The notes beneath the pieces are model-generated. The model saw nothing but the letters and a program-made list of their open reading frames with translations, did not search any database and had not been told where the DNA came from. Below are positions 18,715 to 34,180 of a stretch of 52,259 nucleotides of DNA, in pieces. The DNA comes from a phage: NCBI GenBank assembly GCA_025325205.1, contig GCA_025325205.1_4770.1; one strand, written 5' to 3'. Numbering within the stretch: the stretch's first letter is position 1; every line of letters starts with the position of its first letter. Both the position numbers and the translations under genes were made by a program.

Positions 18715-19461
18715 ATGCAATTTACAACTACCGCGCAGGCAGTTTTAGACACTGGTGTCAAGATGCTTGTGTATGGTGAATCCGGTATGGGTAAGACCAT
18801 GCTCACAGCAACCCTTCCAAGACCGTTGCTGATTTCTGCAGAGTCCGGGCTTTTGTCTTTAACACCGAATAACATTGCTCGTGTATTTGGTGAAAACAGA
18901 CCAGATATCTGCTACGATATTCCAACCATCACGGTTGAAAATATCCAGGATGTAGAGCAGGCTTATGTTTGGGCGACTAACCCTGCAAACAATCCTGTAG
19001 GTGAAGATGGTTTACCGCGCTTTCAGTCTCTTGCGCTGGATTCACTTACTGAGATTGCTGAAAAGTGCCTTAACAATGCGAAGCGTACTGTGAAAGATCC
19101 GCGTCAGGCTTATGGGGATCTTATTGAGAAGATGCAAACTTTAGTTCGCGCTTTTCGAGATATCCCTGGACTTAACGTGTACATGGCAGCTAAAATGTCC
19201 CGTAACAAGGACGAGTTGACAGGTATTACGTCTTACGGTCCTTCTATGCCTGGTGCAAAATTAGGTCCAGAATTACCATACTTTTTTGACGAAGTGTTCA
19301 AAATTAGTGTTGGTAAAGACCAAAATACTCAAGCAGATTTTCGTTATCTGCTGACCAGACCAGATCTGTCAAATGTATGTAAAGATCGTTCTGGTTCGTT
19401 AGAACAGATGGAATATCCACATCTTGGTGCAATCATTAACAAAATCAAAGGGGTGCAATAA
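18715..19461 (+). CDS. RecA-core ATPase (Sak4-like recombination protein candidate)
   Basis: Walker A VYGESGMGKT, Walker B-like LALDSL; about 250 aa; adjacent SSB-like gene. Confidence 0.5.
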   Translation: MQFTTTAQAVLDTGVKMLVYGESGMGKTMLTATLPRPLLISAESGLLSLTPNNIARVFGENRPDICYDIPTITVENIQDVEQAYVWATNPANNPVGEDGLPRFQSLALDSLTEIAEKCLNNAKRTVKDPRQAYGDLIEKMQTLVRAFRDIPGLNVYMAAKMSRNKDELTGITSYGPSMPGAKLGPELPYFFDEVFKISVGKDQNTQADFRYLLTRPDLSNVCKDRSGSLEQMEYPHLGAIINKIKGVQ

Positions 19462-20384
19462 TGGCCGGTTTAGGAATGCAATTTAACGCTGGACAACACG
19501 CAGAGCGTCAACACAATAGCTTGATGCCCGCTGGTTGGTATGTTGTTCAGATTGTAAACTCTGAAATCAAACCGACTAAAACTCCAGGCGGTGCGCGTCT
19601 GAATCTTCAGTTTAAGATTATGCAGGGTGATTTTGCTGGTCGTGTAATGTTTGGCGGTTACAACGTCAAGAACGCGAACCCTGTCGCTGTACAGATTGCA
19701 ATGGAAGAACTGGCAGAGCTGTCCCGTGCTGTTAAAGTTCCAGTTTGGAACGATACCGAACAACTGCACGGTATTCCGTTCAACCTGAAAGTGAAAGTTC
19801 GTCAGCAACCTGGCTATGAGCCAAACAACGAACCTCAGATTTATCAAGCAATTGATAATATGGAAGGTGTTGTATACGCAACTAAGGCGGACATGGCTAA
19901 CCTGCCTAAATCAACTCCGGCAGCGGCAGCACAGTCTCCAGCATTTGGTGGCGGTGCGTTCGGTGGTACTCAGCAGCCACAGCAGCAGCAACCGCAGCAG
20001 GGTTTCCCTGGTGCATTTGGGCAGCAGCCGCAGCAACAGCAGCAGCAACCTCAGACTCAGGGGTTCCAGCAGCAGCAGCAACAGCAACAACAGCCGCAGC
20101 AGCCGGTACAGCAGCAGCAACCGCAGCAGTCTGGAACAGTTGATTTTAACAGTGCGGCACAATCTCAACCGTGGGCTAATGGTGCGCAGCAGCAGACTCA
20201 GCAGCAACCTAACTGGGCAACTCAGCAGGTACAGCCTGGAGCAGAGCAACCACAAACTCAAGCTCAGAATACTGGTACTGCTAACCATGCAGAACCTGAA
20301 GTCCAGGATGATATCGCTAAAGCAGCTCAGACCAAGACTCCACCGTGGAAACGTTCCACTGAAGGCGATGACGCTGCACAGTAA
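19461..20384 (+). CDS. putative ssDNA-binding protein with Gln/Pro-rich low-complexity linker
   Basis: Globular N-terminal part then QQPQQQQ... tract and acidic C-terminus; position next to Sak4-like ATPase; no OB-fold motif verified. Confidence 0.35.
   Translation: MAGLGMQFNAGQHAERQHNSLMPAGWYVVQIVNSEIKPTKTPGGARLNLQFKIMQGDFAGRVMFGGYNVKNANPVAVQIAMEELAELSRAVKVPVWNDTEQLHGIPFNLKVKVRQQPGYEPNNEPQIYQAIDNMEGVVYATKADMANLPKSTPAAAAQSPAFGGGAFGGTQQPQQQQPQQGFPGAFGQQPQQQQQQPQTQGFQQQQQQQQQPQQPVQQQQPQQSGTVDFNSAAQSQPWANGAQQQTQQQPNWATQQVQPGAEQPQTQAQNTGTANHAEPEVQDDIAKAAQTKTPPWKRSTEGDDAAQ
19971..20130 (+). repeat. CAG/CAA-rich (poly-Gln/Pro) coding microsatellite
   Basis: Runs of cagcagcagcaaccgcagcag read from sequence inside ORF 19461-20384. 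Confidence 0.8.
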
Positions 20385-25360: not shown

Positions 25361-26125
25361 ATGTTTGCACAAGCCATTATCGCCCACCACTGGGCTCAAG
25401 CCAAATTTGGAAATCATATGAAAATTATTAATACTCAGGAACCTGAGAAGTTAGTTCGTGAACGTGGTATTCTTGATGTACATTCCATTTTTCATACCAT
25501 TCAAGGCGAAGGCCCATTTTGTGGTCAACCTGCCGTATTCGTTCGATTAGCTGGTTGTAACCTGCAATGCCCAGGTTGCGATACAAACTATACGTCCAAT
25601 CGTAATAAAATGAGTCACAGTGATATTTGGCAAGAAATCGTTCGTGTCACTGGTGAAGCCAAGACTAAATTAGTTGTCATTACTGGTGGCGAACCTTTCC
25701 GTCAACCTGAAGTTGTTAGTTTTATCAACTACCTTATTGATATGAAAGGATACCGTGTACAGGTTGAAACTAACGGGACTATGCCTATCCCGCGTGAACT
25801 CAACTATAGTTGTGTGGTAGTATGTAGTCCTAAGGCAGCAAAGATTCACCCTAGCGTTTCCGCTCGAGCAAATGCTTTCAAATATGTAATGAAAAGTGGA
25901 AACGTCAACGAGGAAGATGGATTACCGTTGCAGGCACTGGATCACCGTGCAACACCATTTATCGCACGTCCGCCTGTACACTTTAAAGGTAATATTTATC
26001 TTCAGCCTATGGATGAACAAGACGACGATGCTAATAAAGCAAACGCTCAAGCTGTCGTTAAATACGCAATGAAGCATAATTATATCGTGCAATTGCAGGT
26101 TCATAAGTATTTAGGTGTAGAATAA
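25361..26125 (+). CDS. queE: 7-carboxy-7-deazaguanine synthase (radical SAM, QueE-like)
   Basis: GEGPFCG ... LAGCNLQCPGCDT (CxxxCxxC radical-SAM cluster motif), VITGGEP; start chosen at ATG 25361 after GAGG. Confidence 0.7.
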   Translation: MFAQAIIAHHWAQAKFGNHMKIINTQEPEKLVRERGILDVHSIFHTIQGEGPFCGQPAVFVRLAGCNLQCPGCDTNYTSNRNKMSHSDIWQEIVRVTGEAKTKLVVITGGEPFRQPEVVSFINYLIDMKGYRVQVETNGTMPIPRELNYSCVVVCSPKAAKIHPSVSARANAFKYVMKSGNVNEEDGLPLQALDHRATPFIARPPVHFKGNIYLQPMDEQDDDANKANAQAVVKYAMKHNYIVQLQVHKYLGVE

Positions 26126-26203
26126 AGTTATACATATTTGAAAACGCGCGGATGGTCAGCGTGCTGAAAGATACAATGTGTTCAACTAATAAGGTAAATT
26201 ATT

Positions 26204-26965
26204 ATGATCAAATATGTCCAATTACTTGGTGAGATTGTTCCGGAAGATGTATTGAATAAGTGCCTGTTCGATGAAGACGGGTTTGTAAAACATTATGTAG
26301 ATACACCTTCCCAGTTTGCATCTCACTCGGCTCTTGGATTTGTAATTCGAGCTGGATATGCAGTGGATGTGTTGAACGACATGAGTCCTACAGTCACTGT
26401 TTTTGTTGAAGGTATGGACGTACATGATCTTATGAATTTAAAGACCGTTTATAACACGCATGTGACACCACCACGTAATGCACTTTACAAATGGCGTATC
26501 AATACTTCTGTTAGTAGAATCCAAAAACCAGCAGAAGAAGCGGAAGCGGATGCCAAGAAGTACACGACATCTACTCAGAAACTAGCTGGTATGATGGAGG
26601 ATGTACTTACGAGCGCCTTTAAAGTTGATCGTAACAAAGAAGGTGAGCCAGAAGTATTCATTGATGAAGCATTAATTAAGAAAGATCATATCCAGGAGAT
26701 TAAAGCTCCACGTCCGAATAAATATATGCGCAAAATTAAAACTTTTGAATCGCATGATATTAACGGTAGCCCGATTGAAATTGATGTATGGGTTGACGTG
26801 TACGACGTAATTAAAGCATTCAATGTAACCAGTGGGCCCATGCAACATGCACTGAAGAAAGTGCTGTGTGCTGGTGAGCGCGGTCATAAAGACTTGCTGA
26901 AAGACCTCAACGACATCATTGCATCCGTTGAGCGTGAAATTGAAATGGTTAAGGAAGGTAATTAA
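26204..26965 (+). CDS. hypothetical protein embedded in the 7-deazaguanine module
   Basis: 253-aa ORF between queE and gat-queC; no motif recognised. Confidence 0.45.
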   Translation: MIKYVQLLGEIVPEDVLNKCLFDEDGFVKHYVDTPSQFASHSALGFVIRAGYAVDVLNDMSPTVTVFVEGMDVHDLMNLKTVYNTHVTPPRNALYKWRINTSVSRIQKPAEEAEADAKKYTTSTQKLAGMMEDVLTSAFKVDRNKEGEPEVFIDEALIKKDHIQEIKAPRPNKYMRKIKTFESHDINGSPIEIDVWVDVYDVIKAFNVTSGPMQHALKKVLCAGERGHKDLLKDLNDIIASVEREIEMVKEGN

Positions 26966-26966
26966 T

Positions 26967-28382
26967 ATGTGCTCTATCTTTGGTGTTATTACTAACGGTC
27001 AACCTGAAAGTCTTATCATTCGTAACGATATCAACGATCTCATTAAAGCTAGTGTCAACCGTGGTCGTGATGGTCTTGGTGTACGCTTTACGCATGGTGA
27101 CCACAGTATGCACCCGCAACGTATCGTCAGCGTCGGTAAAGAAACATCGATGGAACGTCTTGTTAAAGTGGGGCGCATTGCATCTCACGCTGGAGCTATT
27201 GGCAGCTTCACGATGATTGGTAACGCTCGTGCTGAACCGACTACAGAATGGGTCGTTGACAAGAGCGAGTGGGACCAGCAACCATATCACCTCGATGGTT
27301 GGACTATTGTTCATAACGGTACTATTGCGAACGATAAAGACCTTCGCACCTATGCACTACAAACTAAGATCGATAGTGCTGCAATTGTTGAACAGTTAGC
27401 AGAATGCACACTTTCAAATGATGAAACATGTTTAACTGACTTTAACTACCTGTATAGTGTGTTTCACGAAGTTGTTCGTAAACTGAAAGGGAGTTACGCA
27501 ATTCTTGCGACACATGATTCATTCCCTGGATGCGTGTTTGCAGCATGTAACTATCGTCCGATTTGGATTGGCCAGACTAATACTGGTATGTATTTCGCCA
27601 GCCAGGAAGATATGTTACCGACCAGCGCAACTAAGCGGATGTTGAAACCTTACTCATGTAGTGTGGTTACAGCTACAGATGTACAAAATGAAGTTGATCT
27701 TATTCCAAATAAGCAGACTCAACGTGCGTTAGTTGTCGCCAGTGGTGGTATGGACAGTACGGTGGCAGCTCAGATGTGCAAGTCCAATGGTTTAGATGTC
27801 ACTCTCATTAACTTCCAGTATGGTTGTCGTGCAGAAACTAATGAGTTAAAGGCTATTCGTAAGATTGCGGAAGTAATGGAAGTTCCGTTAGTTGAGTTCC
27901 CAATCCCAATTTACGATAAGAAAGACAGCCCGTTATTTGATCAAGACGCTGCAATTGCTGGTGGCGAAGAAGGTGCTGAGTTTGCCCATGAATGGGTTCC
28001 AGCTCGTAACCTTGTAATGCTTTCTGTTGCTACTGCATACGCAGAAGCTAACGGTTTCGACTATATTGTTCTTGGTAACAACTTAGAAGAAGCTGGAGCC
28101 TATCCGGACAACGAGCCTGAGTTTATTAACCGCTTTAATCAGGTGCTACCATTCGCTGTAGGCGACGGTAAGCGCGTTGAAGTGCTCATGCCAGTAGGTA
28201 ACTTAATGAAGCACGAAATTGTCGCTACAGGCCTACGTTTAGGGGCCCCGCTTGAGCACACCTGGAGCTGTTACCGTAACGGGGATTTGCATTGTGGTAC
28301 TTGTGGCCCTTGCATGATGCGTCGGACTGCGTTTAATATTAATAACGCACAAGAAGTTATTAAATACGAAAGCGAGGAATAA
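26967..28382 (+). CDS. queC: glutamine amidotransferase-QueC fusion (7-cyano-7-deazaguanine synthase-like with N-terminal class-II GATase)
   Basis: Begins MCSIFGV (Ntn Cys after Met, asparagine-synthetase-like); central ALVVASGGMDSTVAAQMC PP-loop (SGGxDS); C-terminal WSCYRNGDLHCGTCGPCMMR Zn-Cys cluster typical of QueC. Confidence 0.7.
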   Translation: MCSIFGVITNGQPESLIIRNDINDLIKASVNRGRDGLGVRFTHGDHSMHPQRIVSVGKETSMERLVKVGRIASHAGAIGSFTMIGNARAEPTTEWVVDKSEWDQQPYHLDGWTIVHNGTIANDKDLRTYALQTKIDSAAIVEQLAECTLSNDETCLTDFNYLYSVFHEVVRKLKGSYAILATHDSFPGCVFAACNYRPIWIGQTNTGMYFASQEDMLPTSATKRMLKPYSCSVVTATDVQNEVDLIPNKQTQRALVVASGGMDSTVAAQMCKSNGLDVTLINFQYGCRAETNELKAIRKIAEVMEVPLVEFPIPIYDKKDSPLFDQDAAIAGGEEGAEFAHEWVPARNLVMLSVATAYAEANGFDYIVLGNNLEEAGAYPDNEPEFINRFNQVLPFAVGDGKRVEVLMPVGNLMKHEIVATGLRLGAPLEHTWSCYRNGDLHCGTCGPCMMRRTAFNINNAQEVIKYESEE

Positions 28383-28383
28383 A

Positions 28384-28917
28384 ATGGGTTACACTGTTAT
28401 TCGTTCACATGAGATTTGCGCTGGTCATCGTGTTGTAGGTCATGAAAGTAAGTGTCAACACTTTCACGGTCACAACTATAAGTTCCATTTTAAAGTTGCA
28501 CCAAAGAAAACATTGTCGGAAGGTTACGTCAAATCTGTAAGTGGATTTGCTCTGAATGGCTCTCTGGACGATGTGGGCCGCGTTATAGACTTTAGTGTGG
28601 TTAAAACTACGCTGTGTCAGTGGTTGGAAGATAATTGGGATCATAAGTTCCTGCATTGGGAACATGACAGCGTAATTAATTCACTTATTATTGTTGCATC
28701 AACTAAGTTCGCGCGTGAAAATAATCTAGTAAAGGACGAAGATTATGATCCTTTCGTTAATTCACTGGTATCTTTACCGTTCAACCCAACTGCGGAAAAC
28801 TTAGCTGCATATATGGTTGACGTAATTGGTCCTCAATTACTTGACCAGTATGGTGTTGAACTGGTAGAATGCACCATTGAAGAAACGTCCAAATGCCATG
28901 TTAACTATTGCAAATGA
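28384..28917 (+). CDS. queD: 6-carboxy-5,6,7,8-tetrahydropterin synthase (QueD-like)
   Basis: CAGHRVVGHESKCQHFHGHNY contains the CxxxHGH zinc/catalytic motif of the PTPS/QueD family. Confidence 0.7.
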   Translation: MGYTVIRSHEICAGHRVVGHESKCQHFHGHNYKFHFKVAPKKTLSEGYVKSVSGFALNGSLDDVGRVIDFSVVKTTLCQWLEDNWDHKFLHWEHDSVINSLIIVASTKFARENNLVKDEDYDPFVNSLVSLPFNPTAENLAAYMVDVIGPQLLDQYGVELVECTIEETSKCHVNYCK

Positions 28918-28943
28918 TTGACCACACAAGGAAACTGTAAACC

Positions 28944-29558
28944 ATGAACGAATTTACAAAGATGACAAACAGAGCAGAGATTTCGCACAGCATTGAAAAG
29001 ATTTTAAAGTTGATTGAAGGTGGGGATGATCTGCGTGAAGGCTTGGTTGAAACTCCATCACGAGTCGCTAAAGCATTTGAAACATGGTTCAGCGGTTACG
29101 ATGTTGATATTGCATCCTTGTTCAAGACCTTTGAAGATGGTGGGGAAAACTGCAATGAAATGGTTATTGTTCGTGATATTCCTGTTTACAGTCATTGCGA
29201 ACACCATATGGCCCCTATTATCGGTCACGCTGTCGTGGGGTATGTTCCTAACGGTCGCATCGTGGGGCTTAGTAAACTGTCTCGCGTGGTTGATGCTTTT
29301 AGCCGTCGCTTGCAAGTCCAGGAGCGTTTAACTAACCAGATTGCGGATGCTATCGTAGAACACTTAGACCCGAAAGCTGTGTGTGTTTACATCGATGCAA
29401 AACATATGTGTATGGAGTCGCGCGGTGTCAAGCAAGTTTGCGGAAGCTCAACCATTACTAAAGCATTCCGTGGGCGTACTGCATTGGGCGATGGTGTATT
29501 ACCTGATGTGACGGGTGACACATGGCGTCGGGAATTTCTTGAAGCGTGTAAGAAGTAA
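28944..29558 (+). CDS. folE: GTP cyclohydrolase I (FolE)
   Basis: VYSHCEHHMAPIIGHAVVGYVPNGRIVGLSKLSRVVDAFSRRLQVQERLT: conserved CEHH zinc motif and GLSKL...QVQER segment. Confidence 0.8.
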   Translation: MNEFTKMTNRAEISHSIEKILKLIEGGDDLREGLVETPSRVAKAFETWFSGYDVDIASLFKTFEDGGENCNEMVIVRDIPVYSHCEHHMAPIIGHAVVGYVPNGRIVGLSKLSRVVDAFSRRLQVQERLTNQIADAIVEHLDPKAVCVYIDAKHMCMESRGVKQVCGSSTITKAFRGRTALGDGVLPDVTGDTWRREFLEACKK

Positions 29559-29592
29559 CTGATTTGCGAATCATACATTATCTTTAATATAA

Positions 29593-29618
29593 TAAGCGCC
29601 TACGGGCGCTTATTTGTT
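29593..29618 (+). terminator. rho-independent terminator (possibly partial) between folE and dpdA
   Basis: AGCGCC-tacg-GGCGCT hairpin followed by TATTTGTT. Confidence 0.5.
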
Positions 29619-29627
29619 AGGTGAACA

Positions 29628-30581
29628 ATGCACAGAGAAGATATCAATTATACCTTTCAGATTTATATGGCTGCCGTATATACGAACAGCTATAAACCAG
29701 GAATGAACCGCTATGTTAAACTCAACGAACAAGAAAAACGTGTTGTCGAAAATATTCCAAACATTCTTGAATCCTGGCACTACGTTGGAAAGCAATCATA
29801 TGTTGATGCCATGCGTGCCGATGGGGCCAAGATATTCCTCGACTCCGGGGCGTTCTCAGCTTACACTTTGGGAGTTACGTTATCAGTTAAAGAATACTGC
29901 GATTACATCCAACGAAACATAGATATCATTCGTGTAGAAGATGGTTCACTTATGGCGTCCGTACTCGATGGTATCGGTGATCCACTTCAAACATGGCGTA
30001 ACCAGGAAGAGATGGAAGCCAGAGGTGTAAGACCTTTACCATGCTTCCACGCGGGTGAACCTTTTGAATACCTGGACCATTATGTACGAAATTATGAGTA
30101 TATCACGCTCGGTGGTCTTGTTGGAGCAAGTACGCAACAACTTCAGATATGGCTGGACAGGGTATGGGATAAACACCTTGTGGATGGTAGTGGACGCGCT
30201 AAAATTAAAGTTCACGGATTTGGTATTACATCCCGTCCACTTATGGAGCGTTACCCGTGGTACTCCTGTGACTCATCTTCCTGGATCCAATCCGCGGCGT
30301 TCGGTGCTATTGAAACGCCTAAATGGGGACCAATGCAGGTATCAGAAAAGTCCCCGTCACGTCACTATCAAGGGCAACATATCTGTAATCTTTCAGAAAT
30401 AGAACAGAACAACGTTCTACGCTACTTAGAGGAGTCAGGTTTCACATACGAGCGACTTTCAACGATATATGAATCACGAGCTGCATACAATTTATGGGCG
30501 TATGGTGTGGTCAACGCTATGATTCTTGCTAACCACAATGGGAAGTTCAACGAACGTCTTCAGGATTTATTTGACGAGTAA
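29628..30581 (+). CDS. dpdA: DNA-guanine transglycosylase (TGT-like, DpdA family) candidate
   Basis: 317 aa; KIFLDSGAFS resembles the TGT catalytic-Asp motif (DSGGFQ); last gene of the preQ0 pathway cluster; start uncertain (weak RBS). Confidence 0.55.
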   Translation: MHREDINYTFQIYMAAVYTNSYKPGMNRYVKLNEQEKRVVENIPNILESWHYVGKQSYVDAMRADGAKIFLDSGAFSAYTLGVTLSVKEYCDYIQRNIDIIRVEDGSLMASVLDGIGDPLQTWRNQEEMEARGVRPLPCFHAGEPFEYLDHYVRNYEYITLGGLVGASTQQLQIWLDRVWDKHLVDGSGRAKIKVHGFGITSRPLMERYPWYSCDSSSWIQSAAFGAIETPKWGPMQVSEKSPSRHYQGQHICNLSEIEQNNVLRYLEESGFTYERLSTIYESRAAYNLWAYGVVNAMILANHNGKFNERLQDLFDE

Positions 30582-32139: not shown

Positions 32140-34109
32140 GAAAAGACGCGATTGGGTTTTTCTGGACGGATTTACCTCCCGCTAAGAAAGAGAAGAAACA
32201 GAAAGTAAAACGTCAACCAGTTGAAAGGGTATGGGAGCGCCCAGACTACCTTCCAGGTCTTGATGCAGCAATGCGTTTTGCAGCTAATGATCCGCGTATG
32301 ACAGACGGTGAATTAGTGGAGATGTATTTTGCACAAGAAACGTTCGTATACGATATCGAATGCTATAAGAACTATTTTCTTGTAGCGTTTAAAGGGGTTA
32401 AGTTCGGTAAGGTTTATTATCTAGAAATGACTGCTGGTCAAACACTTGACACGGAAAAGTATGAATGGATAATGAAGAACTTTCGTACCGTTGGTTTCAA
32501 CTCAAGAAACTACGATAATACGATGACATTCCTTGCCATTGCTGGTCTGACTGTTGACAAGCTGAAAGAAGCAAGTGACAGGATGATCCAGGAAGAGTGG
32601 GCCCCGTGGGACATTCTTAACAGTTTTGGTGTGAAGCAGTTTTGGATTGACCACATTGACGTTCAAGAAGTAGCTCCTGGCTTCGGTTCCCTAAAATTGT
32701 ACGGTGGCCGTATGCACATGCAGAAGCTCCAGGACTTACCGTTCCCACCGCATTGGGCGCTGTCCATAGAACAGATTGCTATTGTGCGCTTCTACTGTAT
32801 CAACGACCTTGATACAACAATGGCTCTGTTTAACTCACTGGAAGAGCAGATCCATCTACGTGAGATTATGAGTGAAGAGTATAAAGTAGACCTTCGCTCT
32901 AAATCTGACGCACAAATTGCAGAAGCAGTAATCCGCCATGAAATGAAGGAAATGTTGGGCTTCGTACCACAGAAGGGTATGGTGGAAGTTGGTAGAACCT
33001 TCAGATATAATCCTCCAGTGTGGTTAGGTTTCCAAACGCCACTAATGAAGTCCGTATTTCAGGTGGTGCTTGACAGTTACTTCCGAGTTGCAGAAGATGG
33101 TAAGATTAAGCAACCATCTACAATGAACTCTTTGAAGTTTACGATCAACCAGACAACTTACAACATGGGTATCGGTGGTCTACACTCTTGCGAAGAGTTA
33201 ATGGAGATTGTACCATCTGAAGATGAAGAGATGTGGGATGCTGACGTAACGTCGTACTACCCAATCTGTATCATCAACCAGCAACTGTATCCTGAACACC
33301 TGGGCCCACGCTTTATCGATATCTTCGTCAAGATCGTAGAACGACGTATTGCAGCTAAGATGGCTCACGACGATAAGACAGCACAAACTCTTAAGATCGT
33401 TATCAACGGTTCTTATGGTAAGTTTGGTTCACCGTTCTCTATCCTGTATGCACCGCACCTTATTATCCAGACTACGCTAACAGGTCAGTTAGCTTTGCTT
33501 ATGCTCATTGAGACATTGGAGCTTAACGGTATCCAGGTCGTTAGTGCTAACACAGATGGTATCGTTATTAAACCTTGCAAAGCTAAGAAGCAATTAATGA
33601 CTGATATCATTAAGTGGTGGGAAGAGACAACTGGCTTTGAAATGGAACTGAATCAGTACCTGCGTCTTAACTCTGCAAACGTTAACAACTACGTCGCAAT
33701 CAAGGCGGATGGTAAAGCCAAGCGTAAAGGTTGGTTCGCAGAGACAGGTCTTGCTAAGAACGCGGAAGGTGAGATTATTATGGATGCTGTGGTTAATCTC
33801 CTCCGTGACGGTACGCCAATTGCTAAAACTATCACAGAGTGTCAAGATATTCGTAAGTTTGTTTGTATCAAGACAGCTAACGGTGGCGCCGCGTGGAATA
33901 GTGAGCCATTAGGTAAAGTTGTTCGTTGGTATTATACAAAAGAGGAAGTACCTGAAATACTGATAGTCAAGAGTGGTGGTCGTGTTGGTAAGACAGCAGG
34001 GGGTAAACCTATGATGGAACTCACTGACCAGTTACCGCCGGATCTCAACCACGAAGTGTACATAGCTAAAGCGGAAAAATTGCTGGAAAAACTCGCATAC
34101 GCCGCTTAA
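32136..34109 (+). CDS. DNA polymerase, family B (with 3'-5' exonuclease domain)
   Basis: Exo I VYDIE, Exo II NSRNYD, Exo III YCINDLD; pol motif A DVTSYYP, motif B KIVINGSYGKFG (Kx3NSxYG), motif C ANTDGIV. Confidence 0.75.
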   Translation: MRKDAIGFFWTDLPPAKKEKKQKVKRQPVERVWERPDYLPGLDAAMRFAANDPRMTDGELVEMYFAQETFVYDIECYKNYFLVAFKGVKFGKVYYLEMTAGQTLDTEKYEWIMKNFRTVGFNSRNYDNTMTFLAIAGLTVDKLKEASDRMIQEEWAPWDILNSFGVKQFWIDHIDVQEVAPGFGSLKLYGGRMHMQKLQDLPFPPHWALSIEQIAIVRFYCINDLDTTMALFNSLEEQIHLREIMSEEYKVDLRSKSDAQIAEAVIRHEMKEMLGFVPQKGMVEVGRTFRYNPPVWLGFQTPLMKSVFQVVLDSYFRVAEDGKIKQPSTMNSLKFTINQTTYNMGIGGLHSCEELMEIVPSEDEEMWDADVTSYYPICIINQQLYPEHLGPRFIDIFVKIVERRIAAKMAHDDKTAQTLKIVINGSYGKFGSPFSILYAPHLIIQTTLTGQLALLMLIETLELNGIQVVSANTDGIVIKPCKAKKQLMTDIIKWWEETTGFEMELNQYLRLNSANVNNYVAIKADGKAKRKGWFAETGLAKNAEGEIIMDAVVNLLRDGTPIAKTITECQDIRKFVCIKTANGGAAWNSEPLGKVVRWYYTKEEVPEILIVKSGGRVGKTAGGKPMMELTDQLPPDLNHEVYIAKAEKLLEKLAYAA

Positions 34110-34110
34110 T

Positions 34111-34143
34111 AAAAAGTGGGCCAATACGTTTGTACTGGCCCAC
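34111..34143 (-). terminator. rho-independent terminator for the minus-strand late transcript (convergent junction)
   Basis: GTGGGCCA ... TGGCCCAC stem (34116-34143) with A-run on plus strand (T-run on minus) at 34111-34115. Confidence 0.5.
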
Positions 34144-34180
34144 AATAAAATGCCCCCAAAATGCCGCACGTTGCCTCTGC

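Follow-up and report, generated by a model that had tools for sequence, protein, structure and literature searches.

The locus comprises an ORF of 1416 nt on the plus strand (26967..28382) of the window, the whole 52,259-nt stretch of phage DNA that was analysed, together with the neighbouring genes queE, queD, folE and dpdA and an additional ORF of 253 aa (Table 1). The encoded protein of 471 aa (plus stop codon) affiliates with the Gat-QueC family, the archaeosine-forming fusions of a glutamine amidotransferase (GATase) with QueC known from phages and archaea. The sequence characters of both domains, the homology and the gene context all place it in this family.

Table 1 Features of the gat-queC locus; positions are those of the window
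Feature	Position	Strand	Basis
queE (7-carboxy-7-deazaguanine synthase, radical SAM)	25361..26125	+	Pfam Radical_SAM; 95.7% identity to 9g QueE
253-aa ORF between queE and gat-queC	26204..26965	+	phrog_18443, function not assigned; 82.5% identity to 9g
Shine-Dalgarno sequence AAGGAAGG	26951..26958	+	8 nt 5' of ATG 26967; read off the sequence
gat-queC CDS	26967..28382	+	ORF; 94% identity to 9g Gat-QueC AHN84522; phrog_10428 full length, E 3.2e-283
Class-II (Ntn) glutamine amidotransferase domain, residues 1-~245	26967..27701	+	Pfam, NCBIfam, GlmS alignment, Foldseek
Predicted nucleophile Cys2	codon 26970-26972	+	Invariant in 103 sequences
QueC domain (PP-loop ATP pyrophosphatase), residues 253-458	27723..28340	+	Pfam QueC, PDB alignments, Foldseek
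PP-loop S259-G-G-M-D-S264	27741-27758	+	Invariant as SGGxDS in 103 sequences
Zn-binding cysteines C435, C443, C446, C449	28269-28313	+	Invariant; align to 2pg3, 3bl5
queD (6-carboxytetrahydropterin synthase)	28384..28917	+	Pfam PTPS, E 1.3e-19; 94.9% identity to 9g QueD
folE (GTP cyclohydrolase I)	28944..29558	+	Pfam GTP_cyclohydroI, E 3.3e-63; 96.1% identity to 9g FolE
dpdA (DNA guanine transglycosylase, inserts 7-deazaguanine base)	29628..30581	+	phrog_887, E 8.6e-99; 99.4% identity to 9g DpdA

Translation from the ATG at 26967 opens with MCSIFGVITNG, which agrees with the Met-Cys-Ser-Ile-Phe-Gly-Val N-terminus given in a preliminary description made from the sequence alone. The ATG is followed by a TGC (Cys) codon and preceded by the stop of the upstream ORF at 26965, and a Shine-Dalgarno sequence lies 8 nt upstream. 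Conservation was assessed with 103 homologues, whose identity to the protein of the window ranges from 52 to 96%; a Met-Cys start stands at the aligned position in 102 of them, the lone exception being a mis-called upstream start. On these grounds ATG 26967 is the real start. Ntn glutaminases require the Cys as their first residue once the Met has been removed. An in-frame TTG upstream (26919) was rejected as the start because of the Shine-Dalgarno sequence before the ATG, the MC start of the homologues and the requirement for the Cys.

The gene order queE-orf-gat-queC-queD-folE-dpdA-sliding clamp is collinear with that of phage 9g, and the DNA of the 5.3-kb cluster is 88-94% identical to that of the Nonagvirus members vB_EcoM_PD328, ESCO3, 9g, JenK1, JenP1/2, SE1 and ChristophMerian. 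Gat-QueC aligns without gaps over 471/471 aa with the 9g protein AHN84522 (94% identity), and none of the 28 substitutions falls on an invariant position. The two proteins share length, two-domain composition, gene neighbourhood and genus; among Gat-QueC proteins from phages, that of 9g is the founding member (Thiaville et al. 2016; Hutinet et al. 2019). A six-frame tblastn search of the window with both halves of the protein returned gat-queC alone (next best E > 0.4), and hence no second QueC or glutaminase, which confirms the earlier remark that the window holds no standalone queC. The window represents about 52 kb of a genome type of 56-64 kb, so that a separate gene could lie beyond it, although the annotation of the 9g stretch examined contains no such gene. 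Pfam and PHROG scans and the comparison with 9g revealed no ArcS or QueF-like gene in the cluster.

Several lines of evidence identify the N-terminal domain as a class-II GATase. Pfam GATase_7 (PF13537) matched residues 97-217 with 29.3 bits (cut-off 25), and positions 1-218 of the NCBIfam model of the GlmS glutaminase aligned with residues 1-236 (E 4.3e-12), the PurF and AsnB models scoring weaker. A search against PDB sequences matched the N-terminal half to the GlmS glutaminase domain 1xff. The same structure was retrieved when the modelled domain was compared with the PDB by Foldseek (TM 0.79, rmsd 3.2 Å), as were structures of GlmS/GFAT, PurF, AsnB and EgtC. The preliminary description had recognized a class-II N-terminus such as that of asparagine synthetase and had let its proposal depend on a match to class-II profiles. 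Such matches were found and the class-II assignment stands; asparagine synthetase is not the closest relative, GlmS being nearer.

The catalytic set of class-II glutaminases consists of Cys1, the Arg of an RGxDG motif, Arg and Thr residues that bind the substrate, an Asn-Gly oxyanion hole and an Asp that holds the glutamine amino group. Invariant among the 103 homologues are M1, C2, G6, R32-G-R-D-G36, N86, R88, T92, T93, H116-N117-G118 and D136-S137. In a HMMER alignment to E. coli GlmS, N117-G118 correspond to the oxyanion hole Asn98-Gly99 and D136 to Asp123; the correspondence of RGRDG to Arg26 and of R88...T92 to Arg73/Thr76 is a match at the level of motifs and less certain.

Neither GlmS nor AsnB accounts for the protein as a whole. 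The score against GlmS was 44 bits with a cut-off of 381 bits and covered the glutaminase part only; the C-terminal half is QueC. In GlmS, the glutaminase domain is followed by two SIS isomerase domains. Judged by its sequence, the protein is mis-annotated under its RefSeq and PHROG name 'L-glutamine-D-fructose-6-phosphate aminotransferase'. AsnB resembles the protein in that a PP-loop ATP pyrophosphatase domain comes after an N-terminal Ntn glutaminase, and the two likely share the same logic. Although analogous in architecture, the protein is no AsnB, as the score against AsnB (TIGR01536) reached 29.2 bits with a cut-off of 267.1 bits, again over the glutaminase part only, and the synthetase domain is that of QueC and not of the AsnB type.

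The C-terminal domain was recognized by Pfam QueC (PF06508) at residues 253-458 (E 4.6e-56). The QueC core is therefore preceded in the same ORF by about 250 aa, as had been estimated in the preliminary description; the domain analysis by HMM and structure prediction that was suggested there places the glutaminase at residues 1-~245 and QueC at 253-458. The C-terminal half matched the QueC structures 2pg3 and 3bl5 in a search against PDB sequences, and Foldseek superposed the modelled domain on QueC from B. subtilis (3bl5) with a TM of 0.79. The underlying AlphaFold2 model, calculated from the alignment of 103 sequences, was confident, with a mean pLDDT of 89.1 and a pTM of 0.86; the loop 371-386, which is invariant, was modelled poorly. 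As neither domain varies at its catalytic residues among the 103 homologues, both active sites look intact and under selection. No nucleic-acid-binding domain was detectable in the 471 aa by Pfam scan or in the AlphaFold model. The equivalog model for QueC (TIGR00364) scored 150.1 bits, just below its cut-off of 150.3, and PRK11106 scored 49.6 with a cut-off of 378.

The function of the orthologous genes of phage 9g has been studied by genetic means. About 25% of the dG in 9g DNA is 2'-deoxyarchaeosine, dG+ (PMC5699537; PMC10516641). Hutinet et al. (2019) expressed the 9g genes in E. coli, where dpdA alone led to dPreQ0 at 84-790 per 10^6 nt, whereas dpdA together with gat-queC led to dG+ at 22,750-45,000 per 10^6 nt, equal to 9-18% of G; gat-queC without dpdA formed nothing (PMC6884629). 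The formation of dG+ was kept in a delta-queC strain and lost in a delta-queD strain (PMC6884629). For the 9g orthologue it is thus shown that gat-queC and dpdA suffice for dG+ in E. coli and that Gat-QueC replaces QueC there. Queuosine was not regained when delta-queC E. coli received the 9g gat-queC; FolE, QueD and QueE of 9g each complemented E. coli mutants, including QueE in delta-queE, and the function of 9g DpdA was demonstrated in vivo (PMC6884629). The missing complementation by the 9g orthologue and the scores below cut-off for TIGR00364 and PRK11106 together show that the QueC domain is diverged and that the protein is not an equivalent of the canonical preQ0-synthase QueC.

With high confidence, we assign 26967..28382 as the gat-queC of a 9g-like coliphage (Nonagvirus), through which the DNA modification becomes dG+ and not dPreQ0. 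None of the evidence in this analysis contradicts the identification. The measurements of dG+ are those on 9g DNA and on 9g genes expressed in E. coli; going by sequence, the DNA of the source phage almost certainly carries dG+ as well. That the fusion determines the chemistry of the DNA modification, the central proposal of the preliminary description, is upheld by the 94%-identical 9g orthologue, given dPreQ0 with dpdA alone and dG+ with gat-queC. The expected shift away from the nitrile had been left between an amide and a formamidine. The formamidine is what 9g gat-queC and dpdA yield, and the amide falls away, ADG being the product attributed to a separate QueC variant named QueC* (PMC10516641).

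Observation and interpretation were hence correct, yet publications and database annotations had already recorded both. The two-domain architecture was described by Tsai et al. 2017 (PMC5567051), and the BASEL paper states genus-wide that Nonagvirus forms dG+ via Gat-QueC (PMC8594841). GenBank entries of sister phages carry the names 'archaeosine synthase, glutamine amidotransferases type' and 'dPreQ0 and archaeosine synthase Gat-QueC'. The full-length fusion is present in at least 66 phage records, the hosts of such phages including Escherichia, Salmonella, Klebsiella, Pseudomonas, Vibrio, Alteromonas, Providencia, Variovorax and Xanthomonas, and a large protein collection contained more than 120 full-length relatives, mostly on contigs of 55-63 kb. 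On Gat-QueC, the searchable literature consisted of genetic and comparative papers from 2016-2023 and yielded no biochemistry or structure of purified Gat-QueC.

In the pathway proposed here, FolE, QueD and QueE would lead from GTP to 7-carboxy-7-deazaguanine (CDG), whose carboxylate would be activated with ATP and then amidated, as in QueC, by the C-terminal QueC domain with its PP-loop and Zn site, and DpdA would put the deazaguanine base into DNA in place of guanine. The base exchange by DpdA, the route from GTP to CDG via FolE, QueD and QueE and the QueC-type ATP-dependent amidation are established steps (PMC6884629). In the N-terminal domain, the thiol of Cys2, exposed by removal of the initiator Met, would hydrolyse glutamine, and the ammonia released would serve in amidation, also in the additional step that gives a formamidine at C7. 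By analogy, we infer that glutamine is the nitrogen source and that ammonia is passed internally to the QueC site. In AsnB, a carboxylate is adenylated by the PP-loop domain that follows the Ntn glutaminase, and ammonia arriving through a tunnel then attacks it. The inter-domain geometry of Gat-QueC need not equal that of AsnB, since the superposition of both domains of the AlphaFold model on AsnB (1ct9) by Foldseek was poor (TM 0.33).

Whether the conversion takes place before or after insertion into DNA was left undecided by the 2016 review (PMC5699537) and the 2019 paper (PMC6884629). We lean, with modest confidence, towards an order in which CDG is converted to the free G+ base without release of preQ0 and G+ is then inserted by DpdA. 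This free-base route is favoured because two small-molecule catalytic domains fill the 471 aa and leave no nucleic-acid-binding module, and the failure of the 9g gat-queC to restore queuosine in delta-queC suggests that apparently no free preQ0 is released. Canonical QueC chemistry proceeds through an O-adenylated ADG, from which preQ0 normally arises by loss of AMP. It seems rather unlikely, but would explain dG+ in delta-queC alongside the missing restoration of queuosine by the 9g enzyme, that the nitrile is never formed at all, glutamine-derived ammonia intercepting the O-adenylated ADG to yield the free G+ base that DpdA then inserts. If true, the phage route would be mechanistically unlike the archaeal ArcS and QueF-L routes, in which preQ0 is part of the polymer. 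The opposite order, in which the QueC domain makes preQ0 that is handed to DpdA and inserted, and Gat-QueC then amidates the dPreQ0 in DNA to dG+, is possible by analogy but in our view less likely. The analogy is drawn from archaea, where the substrate of ArcS and QueF-L is preQ0 that has been built into tRNA (PMC5699537). Also consistent with amidation after insertion, 9g DpdA alone inserts preQ0 into DNA, and the authors proposed a channelling of preQ0 to DpdA (PMC6884629); the yield of dG+ with gat-queC was, however, 30-500 times that of dPreQ0 with dpdA alone, a difference for which substrate supply could account (PMC6884629). In 2023 the same group described DpdA1 as preQ0-inserting (PMC10516641). 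The DpdA of the window is 68% identical to the dPreQ0-type DpdA of Seuratvirus, and its base pocket need not differ. What such an order demands is that a QueC active site for free bases takes a base in duplex DNA, and this in a protein of 471 aa without a detectable nucleic-acid-binding domain.

The role of the glutaminase could also be a smaller one. In AsnB, GlmS and PurF, the fused class-II glutaminase replaces free ammonia as the nitrogen source, and such fusions usually do just this; the QueC reaction itself requires ammonia. The domain might then merely make QueC glutamine-dependent (CDG -> ADG -> preQ0, with two ammonia), and the formamidine would be made elsewhere. To our knowledge, E. 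coli has no archaeosine pathway. The published reconstitution with 9g genes contradicts this reading, as E. coli needed no more than gat-queC and dpdA to form dG+, and the 9g gat-queC does not restore queuosine in delta-queC, which would be expected of a plain preQ0 synthase (PMC6884629). With a cluster that is moreover devoid of an ArcS or QueF-like gene, we regard it as very improbable. Hardly credible at all is a degenerate N-terminal domain that has lost glutaminase catalysis and is retained for structure or interaction. It is true that Pfam scored the GATase weakly (29.3 and 21.3 bits) and that solved glutaminase domains share no more than about 20% identity with it, but the entire class-II catalytic set is invariant across the 103 homologues, the conserved start position keeps the Cys as residue 2 and the model of the domain is confident, most of it having a pLDDT >90.

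From publications, the phage protein can be likened to the archaeal (crenarchaeal) Gat-QueC, which also consists of a class-II GATase fused to QueC and has the G+ base as end product. The archaeal enzyme is one of three interchangeable archaeosine-forming amidotransferases, together with ArcS and QueF-L. In a published similarity network, phage and archaeal Gat-QueC form one cluster apart from QueC (PMC6884629). They differ in their target: the archaeal enzyme serves position 15 of tRNA via arcTGT, whereas the phage enzyme serves DNA via DpdA (PMC6884629; PMC5699537).

In Seuratvirus (CAjan, GottfriedDienst), a QueC with the same PP-loop/Zn fold occupies the syntenic position in the order queE...queC...queD-folE...dpdA. 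In contrast to Gat-QueC, it is without a glutaminase domain and the product is dPreQ0 (PMC10516641; PMC8594841). A gene for a YhhQ preQ0 transporter adjoins queC in the Seuratvirus cluster and is absent from the cluster of the window. Compared with GottfriedDienst, QueE of the window is 64%, QueD 69%, FolE 79% and DpdA 68% identical, whereas the QueC domain shares 29% identity with the Seuratvirus QueC. This disparity between the QueC domain and its pathway neighbours points, at the level of sequence, to a gat-queC that replaced the resident queC by a different, already-fused QueC lineage, and not to a glutaminase added to the ancestral gene. Such a replacement fits the separation of phage and archaeal Gat-QueC from QueC in the published network (PMC6884629).

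As dG+ shields phage DNA from many restriction enzymes, gat-queC is a host-range determinant and a candidate part for engineered restriction-resistant phages or DNA. For the window itself, the outcome is the annotation of a Nonagvirus phage. The remaining research value lies in the enzymology of Gat-QueC, namely the nitrogen source, a possible ammonia tunnel and the free base versus DNA as substrate, questions that are raised equally well by the 9g protein.

The 253-aa ORF between queE and gat-queC was considered as a pathway partner and rejected. It affiliates with no Pfam or NCBIfam family, and its conserved C-terminal ~80 aa occur in 727 phage records, most of them without deazaguanine genes; the ORF is probably outside the pathway. 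Because it is 82.5% identical to its 9g counterpart and DpdA is 99.4% identical, the cluster is slightly mosaic with respect to 9g.

The deazaguanine cluster of the window (25361-30581, queE to dpdA) was compared with its counterpart in phage GottfriedDienst (L003), a member of the sister genus Seuratvirus which encodes a standalone QueC. The proteins QueE, QueD, FolE and DpdA shared sequence identities between 64 and 79%, whereas the QueC domain of Gat-QueC, the glutamine amidotransferase/QueC fusion predicted as archaeosine synthase, was only 29% identical to the Seuratvirus QueC. Moreover, the preQ0 transporter YhhQ is encoded in the Seuratvirus cluster and is absent from the window. The disparity in identity, along with the lack of YhhQ in the window, suggests that queC was replaced as a gene, rather than enlarged by accretion of a domain in place.

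Within Gat-QueC, conservation peaked at residues 371-386 (Table), where column identity in an alignment of homologues reached approximately 99%. This stretch also includes the sole segment of the structure model with a pLDDT below 50 (residues 374-380), and probably constitutes a mobile substrate-binding loop. At the aligned position the standalone QueC reads ...SGYPDCRDEF, its cysteine being an asparagine in Gat-QueC. Because of this difference, the Cys-to-Asn change and its neighbouring residues may be linked to the different product of the two enzymes, i.e. dG+ for Gat-QueC and the nitrile preQ0 for standalone QueC. Orthologues of Gat-QueC in RefSeq phage records (e.g. NC_024146 and NC_029021) and in PHROGs (phrog_10428) carry the name 'L-glutamine-D-fructose-6-phosphate aminotransferase'. 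This name is a mis-annotation, as the likeness to GlmS is limited to the glutaminase domain and the remainder of the protein is QueC.

The gene located between queE and gat-queC encodes a protein of 253 amino acid residues without a match to any curated family in Pfam or NCBIfam. At 82.5% identity, it has diverged further from its counterpart in the Nonagvirus Enterobacteria phage 9g than any other cluster gene. Its C-terminal part of about 80 residues is a module present in 727 phage records, many of them without deazaguanine genes, and has a relative in the Seuratvirus cluster (bas21_0043); the full-length form occurs in only about 20 records.

Features of the window with their positions and distinguishing traits
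Feature	Position	Strand	Remarks
307-aa ORF	19461-20384	+	upstream of replication genes
253-aa ORF	26204-26965	+	between queE and gat-queC
Gat-QueC residues 371-386, NNLEEAGAYPDNEPEF	28077-28124	+	highest conservation in protein
HNH endonuclease ORF, 186 aa	31579-32139	+	phrog_99, E 2e-49

Downstream of the cluster, an HNH endonuclease ORF is inserted between the genes of the sliding clamp and the DNA polymerase, overlapping each by a few bases. Salmonella phage SE1 shares the insertion at this junction, whereas in 9g and most other Nonagvirus genomes it is lacking and both genes abut. The inserted ORF is probably a mobile homing endonuclease.

No tRNA genes were found across the whole window. 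The 307-aa ORF encodes a long low-complexity tail rich in glutamine and proline, with runs such as QQQQQQQQQPQQPVQQQQPQQ. The ORFs between about 8 kb and 34.1 kb lie on the plus strand and those beyond on the minus strand, and the sign of the GC skew flips where the direction of transcription switches (approximately 34100-34200).
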